Source: Candidatus Micrarchaeota archaeon
GTDB taxonomy: Archaea > B1Sed10-29 > JAJRYS01
Direction: 5' to 3'
Assembly: GCA_964643685.1 (NCBI GenBank)
Contig: CAZXTN010000001.1
Location: 64,001-128,000, forward strand
Length of the DNA stretch: 64,000 nucleotides
Positions within the stretch are counted from its first letter, which is position 1; every line of letters starts with the position of its first letter. Below are positions 46,188 through 50,326 of the stretch, piece after piece. The notes under the pieces are model-generated. The model saw nothing but the letters and a program-made list of their open reading frames with translations, was not told the origin of the DNA and did no database searches. The position numbers and the translations under genes were made by a program.

Positions 46188-46262
46188 CTTCTGCAACTAT
46201 GTTTACTATGCGTTTTGCAGAAGTTTCTTCTGCAACTGCGCTTGCTATGCGTTTTGCAGAAG
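46188..46262. repeat. Two tandem 36-nt hairpin units (CTTCTGCAA...TTGCAGAAG)
   Basis: Units at 46188-46223 and 46227-46262, embedded in a degenerate copy of the tRNA-Leu(TAA) 5' end. Confidence 0.85.
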
Positions 46263-46303
46263 TGGGGGAGCTTGGAAAACTCCCATTAATTAATATAGAA
46301 CAC

Positions 46304-46424
46304 GCAAGGGTGGCGGAGCTTGGAAAACGCGCAGGACTTAAGATCCGTACACAGGTTTTCAAACCTACCGGTTTGGTTATCCTGTGTCTCAGTGACTACG
46401 AGGGTTCAAATCCCTTCCCTTGCA
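46304..46424 (+). tRNA. tRNA-Leu(TAA) with canonical intron 46343-46378
   Basis: GCAAGGG/CCCTTGC, CAGGA-CT-TAA-G^A-TCCTG, long variable arm. Confidence 0.92.
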
Positions 46425-46479
46425 CTAATGGGTTTTATGCCCATGGGTTTTGATGCAACTTTTGTCAAAAGTTGCGTTT

Positions 46480-46596
46480 AAATCCCTTCCCTTGCACTTT
46501 GAAAAAAAATAAAGGGACTAAGCGAAGCGCATGTCGCTGGATTAAATGCAATTTTTGTTAAAAATTGCTGACAATCCCTTCCCTTGCACTAATGGG
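46480..46596 (+). repeat. Two extra copies of the tRNA-Leu(TAA) 3' end (AATCCCTTCCCTTGCACT) at about 46480-46498 and 46573-46596
   Basis: Exact direct repeats of 46409-46426. Confidence 0.9.
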
Positions 46597-48164: not shown

Positions 48165-48389
48165 GCAGGGGTAGCCAAGAGGTCAACGGCGCCAGGTTCA
48201 GGTGAACTTCTTTCAAAAAGAAGTTCTGAAACGCCTGGTCTCTCAGTGAGTTCAAGGGTTCGAAAGCAGCCGTATCCGGCTGGCGGGCTAGACGACGTTC
48301 ACTTCGTTCAGTCGTCTGGTTTTCTTTTTAAAAAAGAAAAAGAGTCCGCTTTCAGCTGGAAACAGTTGACGGGAATCCCTTTCCCTGCA
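48165..48389 (+). tRNA. tRNA-Leu(CAG) with canonical intron 48203-48232 and 111-nt T-loop intron 48265-48375
   Basis: GCAGGGG/TCCCTGC, CCAGG-TT-CAG-G^G-CCTGG, AAGGG-TTCGAA^T-CCCTT. Confidence 0.88.
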
Positions 48390-48425: not shown

Positions 48426-48442
48426 GCCGGGGTGGTTCAGCC
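48426..48442 (+). repeat. Exact duplicate of tRNA-Met exon 1 (GCCGGGGTGGTTCAGCC)
   Basis: 17-nt identity with 48516-48532, ending exactly at the intron junction. Confidence 0.92.
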
Positions 48443-48515
48443 TGCCCCTTTCTTTTAAAAAAAGAAAGCGACAAGTTCGCGGAAAGAAAAAAGGTTGAAA
48501 AACAATAGAAAAAAC

Positions 48516-48633
48516 GCCGGGGTGGTTCAGCCACTGCGTTGAAAAGATTTCAACGTGTTTTCAGCGCAGCTGAAATGGTTAGGACGCAAGACTCATAATC
48601 TTGAGATCGCTGGTTCAAATCCGGCCCCCGGCA
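48516..48633 (+). tRNA. tRNA-Met(CAT), probably elongator, with D-loop intron 48533-48575
   Basis: GCCGGGG/CCCCGGC, CAAGA-CT-CAT-AA-TCTTG, strict BHB helix TCAG/CTGA. Confidence 0.92.
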
Positions 48634-48695
48634 CTAAAAAAAGGGCTTTATACCCTTTTGGGTTTTGATGCAACTTTTGTTAAAAGTTGCCGAAG

Positions 48696-48714
48696 ATCCA
48701 GCCCCCGGCACTAA
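48696..48714 (+). repeat. Duplicate of tRNA-Met 3' end (ATCCAGCCCCCGGCACTAA)
   Basis: One mismatch to 48619-48637. Confidence 0.88.
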
Positions 48715-48781
48715 GAAATAAATGAAAAAAAGCCATAACAAAGCATTTAAATAATGCTTTAGATAAAAAAACATAGAAACC

Positions 48782-48924
48782 GCCGCAGTAGCACAGTCTG
48801 CAAGAAACGAAGTTTCTTGAGCTTCCACCTTGCAGGTGCAATGGTAGTGCGGCTGCCTTGTAAACAACCTTAAAAAGTTGTTCAGGACAGCAGCAGGTCA
48901 CCGGTTCAAATCCGGTCTGCGGCT
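48782..48924 (+). tRNA. tRNA-Thr(TGT) with D-loop intron ~48799-48841 and canonical intron 48863-48888
   Basis: GCCGCAG/CTGCGGC, GCTGC-CT-TGT-A^A-GCAGC, ACCGG-TTCAAAT-CCGGT. Confidence 0.9.
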
Positions 48925-49112
48925 CTACAATTTGTTGAACAAATTGTATTAAACAATCTATCTTCGGCGACAAGCGCCTTGATAGACTAGTTCAAACTTC
49001 TAACGAAGTTTGAAATCTTTTTTGCCTTACGGCAAAAAAATGAGCACTTCAGCAAGCTGAAGGGGTCAATTGATACAAACTTTTAAAGTTTGTTTTGCCT
49101 TACGGCAAAAAA
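48925..49112 (+). repeat. Four-hairpin dispersed repeat, copy C (48925-49040) plus truncated copy (about 49073-49112)
   Basis: Starts at the base after the tRNA-Thr discriminator. First 31 nt are identical to copy D. Confidence 0.85.
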
Positions 49113-49151
49113 CAAAAAGTGAAAGTAGCAAGATAAGAAAATAGGTGTTTT

Positions 49152-49808: not shown

Positions 49809-49936
49809 GCCCCGGTAGTCTAGTGGTTAGGATTCAGCCCTGTCGAGGCTGAGACTCGGGTTCAAAAGTGACTTTTCTTTTCAAAAAAGAAAAGACACCT
49901 GAAAAGAAAACACTACTGAAAATCCCGGCTGGGGCG
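49809..49936 (+). tRNA. tRNA-Asp(GTC) with T-loop intron 49867-49922
   Basis: GCCCCGG/CTGGGGC, CAGCC-CT-GTC-GA-GGCTG, BHB helix TTCA/TGAA. Confidence 0.92.
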
Positions 49937-50032
49937 CTACAATTTGTTGAACAAATTGTATTAAACAGACCACACAAGGTAGTCTTATTCAAACTCTTTC
50001 AGAGTTTGAAATGTTTTTGCCTTCGCAAAAAA
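49937..50032 (+). repeat. Four-hairpin dispersed repeat, copy D
   Basis: Starts at the base after the tRNA-Asp discriminator, with the same stems and linkers as copies A-C. Confidence 0.85.
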
Positions 50033-50326
50033 GCTTTGCTTCAAAGAAGGGTTGAAACAAAAATTATAAAAGACCCCTAAGAGAAGCACATGTGGTCTGC
50101 GAGGGAATCAGAAATTCCCTAGAAATCAATCGCCTAACGGCTCAAACGTTTTTCCCTAACAGGAAAAACTGAAAGGGGCAGCAAGTCCCCTGCGTTTCGG
50201 TGAGGATTCAGGCTGGGGCGCTTTAGCTTTAAAGCAAAAAAGATACGAATAGAAAAGTATATATACTTGGAAAGCAACAAAAGATACACCTATTTTTTTT
50301 CTATTTTTGGGCTGGGTGAAGTTAAT

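Follow-up and report, generated by a model that had tools for sequence, protein, structure and literature searches.

A stretch of 64,000 nucleotides (nt) from a Candidatus Micrarchaeota archaeon (assembly GCA_964643685.1, contig CAZXTN010000001.1, positions 64,001 to 128,000 of the forward strand), hereafter the window, contains a transfer RNA (tRNA) gene with the anticodon CAU that lies complete between copies of its own two ends. On balance, the outer exons of this tRNA(CAU) gene are probably by-products and not working parts: repeat modules of the type found in introns appear to insert and to duplicate the rest of the gene, which thereby stays whole. A module outside a gene has a direct repeat on either side, which starts within the gene, at an intron site of the T-loop or D-loop, and extends slightly beyond the gene end; since the repeat spans this distance, one complete gene copy survives. 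A sequence-only reading that preceded this analysis had described the architecture at tRNA(CAU). It is not confined to this gene, being common in this genome and also present in other genomes of the phylum.

The tRNA(CAU) locus

The resident gene occupies 48516-48633 on the + strand, and its anticodon is CAU; the tRNA may be an elongator Met or of the Ile2 type. Window coordinates are used unless a contig of the surveyed genome (G000) is named as C1, C2 and so on; window 11876-37373 corresponds to C1:75876-101373. The features of the locus are as follows.

48426-48442, + strand: outer exon 1, an exact copy of resident exon 1 (tRNA positions 1-17)
48443-48515, + strand: upstream spacer Y, with a hairpin CCCTTTCTTTT..AAAAGAAAG at 48446-48468 and then an A-rich stretch with GGTTGAA at 48493-48499
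48516-48532, + strand: resident exon 1 of tRNA(CAU), 17 nt (sequence, tRNA scan and fold)
48533-48575, + strand: resident D-loop intron, 43 nt, ending CTGAAA; central helix TCAG/CTGA, inner helix CTGCG/CGCAG (fold)
48576-48633, + strand: resident exon 2 to discriminator A73; T-arm GCTGG-TTCAAAT-CCGGC without interruption
48619-48637, + strand: left (resident) copy of a 19-nt direct repeat, positions 59-73 plus CTAA
48638-48695, + strand: downstream spacer X1, with an A-run, hairpin GGGCTTTATACCC, hairpin TGATGC-AACTTTTGTTAAAAGTT-GC (48666-48690) and then CGAAG
48696-48714, + strand: outer 3' exon copy, positions 59-73 plus CTAA, with A for G at position 63 (48700)

The sequence GCCGGGGTGGTTCAGCC is found at both 48426-48442 and 48516-48532, an exact pair with a spacing of 90 nt, and ATCCGGCCCCCGGCACTAA at 48619-48637 recurs as ATCCAGCCCCCGGCACTAA at 48696-48714 with a spacing of 77 nt and one mismatch (48700). 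Each repeat pattern has 2 matches in the window, and none of 100 dinucleotide shuffles contained any. The sequence-only reading had described most of these elements correctly. The exact duplication of the 17-nt exon 1, 90 nt upstream, is borne out by the sequence and by contig X4 (below), and the duplication of the 3' end at 48696-48714 by a copy that starts at position 59 and carries the one mismatch. The resident gene does have a D-loop intron ending in CTGAAA and no T-loop intron, and the CGAA-GA before the 3' copy does resemble T-loop intron ends, a hairpin followed by CGAA-GA being the same layout.

The complete one-intron gene at 48516-48633 folds as a cloverleaf. Its T-arm and acceptor strand are continuous (48609-48633), and X1 sits 3' of the gene, where it interrupts no mature RNA. 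A ribonuclease P (RNase P) RNA gene is present in the genome, so that maturation of a resident exon 1 preceded by a spacer is still possible in a read-through transcript. ARAGORN did not detect the tRNA(CAU) gene, and the Rfam tRNA match covers only 48569-48633 of it (gathering thresholds). Across the window, ARAGORN recovered 3 and Rfam 5 of the 15 tRNA genes placed by a custom scan; most are missed by standard finders because of their D-loop and T-loop introns.

The strand CCAGC of the outer copy pairs fully with GCTGG, and the resident CCGGC gives one U.G pair. The earlier statement that the copy pairs better was therefore right as to full pairing but wrong as to 'better', since the U51.G63 wobble of the resident gene is kept in 6/6 relatives viewed, which indicates that the A63 of the outer copy is the derived form. 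It is because the copy has lost this conserved wobble pair that the outer exons are regarded as by-products.

When 48426-48714 is folded at minimum energy, the inner tRNA forms its structure alone, and outer exon 1 and the outer 3' exon form a 7-base-pair (bp) outer stem (z = -6.9), a trivial consequence of their sequence. The GGTTGAA of the upstream spacer and TTCAGCC of outer exon 1 form a plain 7-bp helix with no bulge-helix-bulge and no exon 2 behind it. Thus, the TTGA-AA noticed at 48495-48500 is present, but the bulge-helix-bulge that it was expected to form with TCAG is replaced by a plain helix with an A-rich spacer behind, and it is weak evidence for a relic splice site. For X1 and the outer 3' exon, a 3' half-site is present, with 5 bp in the outer helix GCTGG/CCAGC and 3/4 pairs plus one A.C mismatch in the central helix TTCA/CGAA; an inner helix beside the 5' bulge was sought by eye and not found. 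A relaxed bulge-helix-bulge form is no more than plausible there.

Reality of the duplications

Logan contigs match the region with 0 differences, and the runs that hold the locus are labelled as hydrothermal-vent metagenomes. In a possible source run, one contig covers 48312-48689 and another 48661-48940. From independent runs, contig X4 (48400-48620) bridges both 5' copies and contig X3 (48569-48752) bridges both 3' copies, each with 0 differences. Spanning contigs from independent runs show that the duplications are real DNA. That the duplications arose as an artefact of assembly or chimera formation has a negligible probability. The assembly does contain a 55-nt repeat that brackets an N gap at C4:40522-40731, and contig C8 duplicates C1:75876-101373 at 99.95% identity; against this stand the error-free bridging of both duplications by independent runs and studies and the recurrence of the pattern at 15 loci and in other genomes.

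Two assembly features were observed in passing. C8:90-25585 and window 11876-37373 are 99.95% identical over 25.5 kilobases (kb), which represents assembly redundancy or two near-identical strains, and one tRNA gene is counted doubly there. The N run at C4:40522-40731 lies between identical 55-nt repeats composed of a tRNA T-loop intron and 3' exon; it resembles a scaffolding artefact and mimics the exon-copy pattern.

Exon copies throughout the genome

The genome surveyed comprises 695 kb on 12 contigs with 36% G+C and is 91.75% complete. All direct repeats with a length of 13 nt or more and a distance of up to 400 nt were listed with filters of GC >= 0.35 and entropy > 1.6, and 21 of the 52 pairs that passed in the whole genome are copies of tRNA ends. 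The tRNA genes were located by the 5' half of the T-arm together with a matching T-stem and acceptor strand, after which 17 non-tRNA rows were removed by eye; this stricter scan replaced a first one with 573 mostly false candidates. It yielded 44 tRNA genes, the part of C8 common to C1 being counted once, and a T-loop intron is found in 21 of them. Two repeats, C1:99406 (chance) and C4:40718 (the N-gap artefact), were left out of the copy counts.

Fifteen intact 3' exon copies are spread over 13 of the 44 tRNA genes, with 53-213 nt of intervening DNA, and decayed 3' copies occur at 2 further genes: that of tRNA-Asp in the window, whose copy has 2 changes, and one on C9, whose copy has lost the T-stem strand. 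Upstream copies of the 5' end are seen at 7/44 genes, the shortest two (8 and 10 nt) of which may be due to chance, and 4 genes, tRNA(CAU) among them, have both kinds. It can be seen that the 3' copies start at tRNA positions 57-60 in 12/15 cases and at 53/54 in the other 3/15. The 3' repeat ends 0-8 nt beyond the discriminator in 12/15 and up to about 57 nt beyond it in the others; the 5' copies begin 0-7 nt before tRNA position 1. Ungapped 3' repeats measure 16-41 nt, and one reaches about 72 nt with gaps. Two further tRNA genes of the window have the same architecture.

46304-46596, + strand: tRNA-Leu; gene 46304-46424, X1 and copy 46480-46498, second X1 and second copy 46573-46596
49809-50222, + strand: tRNA-Asp; gene with T-loop intron 49809-49936, X2 with an internal insert at about 50069-50200, decayed copy ATTCAGGCTGGGGCGCT at 50206-50222

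Upstream of the tRNA-Leu gene (window 46206-46283) lie a 39-nt tandem repeat, CTATGCGTTTTGCAGAAGT x2, and a hairpin with a 14-nt copy of the D-loop region of the gene, GGAGCTTGGAAAAC.

The X1, X2 and Y modules

An X1 or X2 module directly precedes every intact 3' copy (15/15). X1 is present in 9-10 copies, each with a variable hairpin, a T-rich linker, the hairpin TGATGC-AACTTTTGTTAAAAGTT-GC and then YGARR; the 31-nt X1 core of tRNA(CAU) has an identical counterpart behind a tRNA-Leu at C2:16667 and another with a 1-nt difference at C1:110445. For X2, a motif scan gives 14 copies and a covariance model 13 matches; the module has three hairpins and the end GCGKTTCGG(T)GAR, and its consensus fold shows compensatory changes in 6 of 15 predicted pairs, including those that separate two subfamilies. 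The modules have a common build that matches the ends of bulge-helix-bulge introns, namely a stable hairpin, 4 nt able to pair with the exon bases immediately 5' of the splice site, and then 2-3 nt.

The same modules form parts of true introns. X2 is the 3' part of a true T-loop intron in Gln-TTG of the same genome. The X1 hairpin, present in 7 of 31 genomes of the phylum, is the 3' end of a true anticodon-loop intron in three of them (G016, G006 and G015), where it is followed by 4 exon-pairing nt and then 2 nt. In G005, a true D-loop intron has the Y hairpin at its 5' end; in G002 and G025 this hairpin simply stands behind tRNA 3' ends. The view of the flank hairpins as intron parts is upheld for X1 by the introns of G016, G006 and G015 and for Y by the D-loop intron of G005.

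The modules also recur beside exon copies. In G018, G025 and G007, a tRNA 3' exon copy stands behind the X1 hairpin in the 4 cases checked, a fifth being cut by a contig end. Three other families of the phylum also have X1 next to an exon copy, for the most part at tRNA-Leu; the hairpin there shows a compensatory change from C:G to A:U. Within the surveyed genome, the Y hairpin also stands behind the 5' exon copy at Gln-TTG (C1:166267) and, upstream of Gly-GCC (contig C4), behind two diverged copies of exon 1. X2 was found in 4 of the 31 genomes. Rfam gave no match for X1, X2 or Y beyond tRNA and chance matches (the window at gathering thresholds and 11 tRNA loci at E up to 1).

Several other identities of these sequences were considered. 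The X1 hairpin in the surveyed genome has TGATGC or TGATGA on the 5' side and CTGA or CCGA on the 3' side. A box C/D small RNA or K-turn is unsupported in the relatives, as G018 and G025 lack the 3' box (TTCG) and a spacer of guide length is missing. X2 contains CUGA and has, by eye, no GAAA after the second stem, so it was not accepted as a hammerhead ribozyme. A guide-RNA reading (scaffold and guide, as with TnpB, IscB or an antisense small RNA) was suggested by the copy of nearby sequence behind the elements. It was dismissed because neither TnpB nor IscB was found, the copy has the sense orientation, and no consistent downstream promoter for an antisense transcript was seen by eye. Likewise, a processing stem of outer exon 1 and the outer 3' exon, as in ribosomal RNA, is not indicated, there being only a 7-bp stem, no bulge-helix-bulge, and both flanks at only 4 tRNAs.

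Two peculiarities of X2 may be recorded here. In three copies (window 50097-50200, C3:26810-26913 and C6:632-735), the second and third hairpins are separated by a common 45-nt insert, CAATCGCCTAA..GGAAAAA, which may be a sub-element nested in the element. In G005, the X2 copy L048 (C41:69-130, minus strand) abuts a tRNA 5' end (..GGTCTGG|AGGGGCTGTAGCTCAGCGGG) with no repeat, a placement unlike the 3' cases.

Junctions of modules and exon copies

For each copy, the bases from -7 to -4 ahead of its T-stem strand were examined for pairing with T-loop positions 54-57, with the following results.

3' exon copies (n = 15): 4/4 pairs in 8, 3/4 in 3, 2/4 in 4
Real T-loop introns (n = 21): 4/4 pairs in 13, 3/4 in 8, 2/4 in 0
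Random 4-mers (n = 20000): 4/4 in 2.1%, 3/4 in 15.3% (17% with at least 3/4), 2/4 in 39.4%

Thus 11 of the 15 copy junctions pair with the T-loop in at least 3/4 positions, the tRNA(CAU) copy having 3/4 and those at Glu-TTC and Val 4/4. Such pairing, like that of real introns, shows that the sequence of element and then exon copy has the construction of a T-loop intron 3' end. The site at which the 3' copy of tRNA(CAU) starts (position 59) is the site of the intron in the 21 tRNA genes with a T-loop intron. T-loop introns that begin with decayed 3' exon copies were sought by eye and not seen; intron families begin right at the splice site in different tRNAs.

Spread of the elements and comparison with relatives

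Two X2 copies that follow different tRNAs share 98% identity over 85 nt. At C6:36186 the order is exon, X2a, exon copy, X2b, exon copy, and the presence of members of two different X2 subfamilies with identical exon copies argues against a simple local tandem duplication. Eleven X2 copies out of 14 lie between direct repeats (8 at the ends of tRNA genes, 3 at those of protein genes), with the right repeat starting 0-10 nt after the element; the remaining 3 lack repeats and comprise the true intron together with two intergenic copies. The protein-coding cases are open reading frames (ORFs) of 785, 228 and 176 amino acids with X2 at the 3' end and repeats of about 33, 56 and 48 nt, respectively, the left repeat consisting of the last codons and the stop. 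Behind the 785-amino-acid ORF, the X2 site is empty in 4/4 family relatives, in which the next gene follows within about 20 nt (about 95 nt in G004). As the same element causes the same duplication at protein-gene ends, the architecture is taken as an insertion by-product and not as a relic of the gene's own former introns. The flanks had been interpreted earlier as relics of 'exon + former intron'; their look of exon and intron end is confirmed, but descent from the gene's own introns is less likely than origin as an insertion by-product.

In G004, a relative of the same family, tRNA 3' exon repeats bracket 8/8 X2 copies viewed, and X2 with a 3' exon copy stands behind tRNA-Asp. No flank copies were found at the tRNA(CAU) gene of 6 relatives in the parts viewed, which in G004 extended only about 60 nt upstream and in G001 only about 70 nt downstream. 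The gene of G004 has the same D-loop intron and, at the site of the 3' copy, a true T-loop intron. The comparison of orthologous loci thus did reveal a real intron at that site, but one unrelated to X1. G009 has the D-loop intron only, and the genes of G001, G003, G007 and G013 are intron-free; a D-loop intron at the same position also occurs in a CAU tRNA of G002.

Proposed mechanism

The flanks of tRNA(CAU) would result from two separate insertions, that of Y upstream and that of X1 downstream of the gene, each by copying of the element into a target whose duplication varies in length. The best guess is a double template switch during replication or repair. The first switch would leave the template in the A-rich trailer, the left edge of the element usually being an A-run, and the second would re-enter at the conserved T-loop, which the 3' end of the element resembles. 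Insertions would survive only where the duplication restores the rest of an essential single-copy gene, and such selection for a whole gene end would explain why repeat lengths pile up just above the 15-nt minimum. The outer exon copies would then be free to decay. Given read-through transcripts, the outer 3' exon would offer a relaxed splice site, and the locus could be an intermediate toward a true T-loop intron. These loci possibly show how archaeal tRNA introns arrive.

In a more far-reaching version, which is tentative and on the whole rather doubtful, self-propagating intron end-modules would enter by copy-choice at the T- or D-loop, and the obligatory duplication of the gene's end would make the insertion harmless. 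A spliceable outer exon would then allow two maturation routes and a circular RNA until one copy decays, the end point being a new intron or a relic, and protein genes would be affected in the same way.

The properties of the elements were compared with those of known mobile elements. A splicing endonuclease ORF of 170 amino acids (C1:21078-21338) is present, and one zinc-ribbon match to TnpB, at 23.6 bits, falls below the cut-off. No terminal inverted repeats, only internal hairpins, were found in the two elements tested (one X2 copy and X1 of tRNA(CAU)). Repeat length differs between insertions (16-41 nt ungapped, up to about 72) and is not that of a fixed short target-site duplication. X1 and X2 adjoin 13 different tRNAs and 3 ORFs at their ends, and every one of these has a repeat of its own, so that no single attachment sequence is involved. 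With no mobility enzyme found among the families searched in the 91.75% complete genome, no terminal inverted repeats in the two elements tested, and variable repeats, these elements fit neither a classical transposon nor an integrase.

A number of observations weigh against insertion of modules with by-product copies. The insertion mechanism is purely inferred, and microhomology at the junctions was seen by eye only. Profile searches of this 91.75% complete genome returned 0 matches for RVT_1, Phage_integrase, Y1_Tnp, Cas1 and Resolvase, DDE families not having been searched. The 5' copies end at scattered positions (8, 10, 10-11, 15-16, 17, 19 and 24); the idea that fragment boundaries follow intron positions across the genome accordingly stood for the non-random 3' starts (12/15 at 57-60, 3 at 53/54) but was not supported for the 5' ends. 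In addition, 12 of the 15 intact 3' copies are identical to the resident exon, which could mean selection or gene conversion and not recent origin, and the recurrence of X1 with an exon copy across families would also fit a conserved function. Between Y and resident exon 1 of Gln-TTG lie 39 nt with 87% identity to the upstream region of the paralogous Gln tRNA, a stretch that is unforeseen by a simple picture of target duplication.

Alternative explanations

The outer pieces might be working alternative exons. A read-through precursor would pair the 5' strand of the T-stem with the distal 3' exon, the endonuclease would cut in the T-loop and before 48696, and ligation would give a tRNA with the outer exon and a circular RNA bearing X1; the layout would be kept for the circular small RNA or as a back-up tRNA route. 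Neither the splicing scheme nor, equally, its supposed products are likely, even though the idea draws on the pairing of 11/15 copy junctions with the T-loop about as well as real intron ends, the identity of 12/15 intact copies, the hairpin structures of X2 and X1 kept via compensatory changes, the layout in several families of the phylum, the splicing endonuclease gene, and the acceptor-like outer stem that outer exon 1 and the outer 3' exon give in the minimum-energy fold. The tRNA(CAU) copy, however, is without the wobble pair that 6/6 relatives keep, its central helix has an A.C mismatch and by eye no inner helix, and the Asp and C9 copies are damaged. The same element duplicates in like manner at three protein-gene ends, where no tRNA fold exists, and the flanks were seen at no relative's tRNA(CAU) locus in the parts viewed. 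Moreover, the inner exon is needless for a circle, since ordinary T-loop introns already yield one. Quite unlikely, too, is an intron bypass, in which the outer exons with Y and X1 would be the original gene with its D-loop and T-loop introns; exon-sized pieces derived from the transcript of that gene, each reaching from splice site to transcript end, would later have been placed beside the introns in break repair, giving an uninterrupted inner gene and stranding the old exons. This fits the repeat ends equally well as the insertion model, as they lie near the expected ends of short primary transcripts (0-8 nt past the discriminator in 12/15 on the 3' side, 0-7 nt before position 1 on the 5' side); longer repeats extend through T-runs, the flank modules are intron modules, and the tRNA(CAU) gene of G004 does contain a true T-loop intron. 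That intron is nevertheless unrelated to X1, no reverse transcriptase was found, and an encoded CCA stands behind no inner exon. The resident gene still has an intron exactly where outer exon 1 ends, Gln-TTG carries the sequence resembling the paralogue's upstream region between Y and inner exon 1, and the protein-gene element occupies an intergenic site that is empty in 4/4 relatives, which marks an insertion and not an old intron.

It has also been proposed (PMC3293823) that archaeal integration at tRNA genes, which rebuilds the gene and leaves a repeat of its 5' or 3' end, is a source of tRNA fragments and of intron gain, and the flanks could by analogy be leftover repeats of viruses or plasmids driven by an integrase and later almost wholly deleted. 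This is very improbable here: no tyrosine or serine recombinase was found, only 53-213 nt lie between the repeats at all 15 loci, and the repeats at protein-gene ends vary in length. A single attachment site cannot account for one spacer family behind many tRNAs, each with its own end.

Relation to known systems

Fujishima et al. (2010) reportedly described tRNA introns with non-canonical bulge-helix-bulge motifs and a 'large-scale intron transposition' in Thermoproteales. As in that system, related intervening sequences occupy D- and T-loop sites of different tRNA genes and have splice-motif ends. The modules described here differ in that they also stand outside intact genes beside a duplicate of the terminal exon, and between long repeats at protein-gene ends; no description of exon duplication for the Thermoproteales intron system was found in the literature searched. 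A side observation falls within the first kind of sharing: a T-loop intron family, AGCAGCCGTATCCGGYTGGCGGGC..., is located at the same site of five tRNA genes with 88-91% identity (window 48267-48376, C9:5919-6071, C6:17228-17334, C6:36287-36370 and C1:32400-32508), as is reported for Thermoproteales.

Integrated archaeal viruses and plasmids of the SSV1 and pNOB8 type have direct repeats of tRNA ends at their borders, and a Caldiarchaeum model couples intron gain to a tRNA fragment (PMC3293823). The rebuilt tRNA gene, the direct repeat of a 5' or 3' end and the tie to intron gain are shared with the present loci. Those elements are of kilobase size with an integrase and one fixed attachment site, whereas here 53-213 nt intervene, an integrase was not found and the repeat beside every tRNA is that tRNA's own. 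Nanoarchaeum, Caldivirga and Thermofilum are known for tRNA genes that are split, tri-split or permuted (PMC3218864). Their pieces likewise end at intron positions, with flanks able to form splice motifs; such genes have no uninterrupted copy and the pieces are essential, in contrast to the complete gene that lies between the pieces here. In eukaryotes, introns born from transposons (Introners and those derived from miniature inverted-repeat transposable elements, MITEs) and intron gain by tandem duplication have been reported (PMC11282704). There too, a repeated non-autonomous element brings splice signals and a target duplication. The present system has a protein endonuclease in place of the spliceosome, duplications that are long, variable and bounded by the gene end, no terminal inverted repeats and no transposase found.

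In the literature searched, with subscription journals and supplements outside the search, no description was found of intact tRNA genes systematically accompanied by an intron-type module and a duplicate exon, nor of a module between long repeats at protein-gene ends; both statements are provisional. A recent preprint says of archaeal tRNA introns that 'how they arrive remains open' and calls for systems in which insertion is caught in progress (bioRxiv 10.64898/2026.10.13.758758). The modules described here are met in three settings: within genes as true introns, behind intact genes together with a duplicated exon, and at the ends of protein genes as dated insertions whose sites are empty in relatives. 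This makes them a system for the study of intron arrival. Predictions on microhomology at the junctions, on how repeat lengths are distributed, on dual maturation and on circular RNAs become testable. For annotation, exon copies of this kind could be mistaken for pieces of split tRNAs.

Other observations

A conserved string of hairpins is found 3' of several tRNA genes, at window 48926-49125 and 49937-50035 and downstream of C3:54884, C2:39923 and C6:36625. Its types are the ACAAATTGT type, CTATC..GATAG, GTTCAAAC..GTTTGAA and TTTTGCCTTACGGCAAAAAA. On the opposite strand, the string contains an X1-like hairpin that leads straight into the antisense of a tRNA 3' end.

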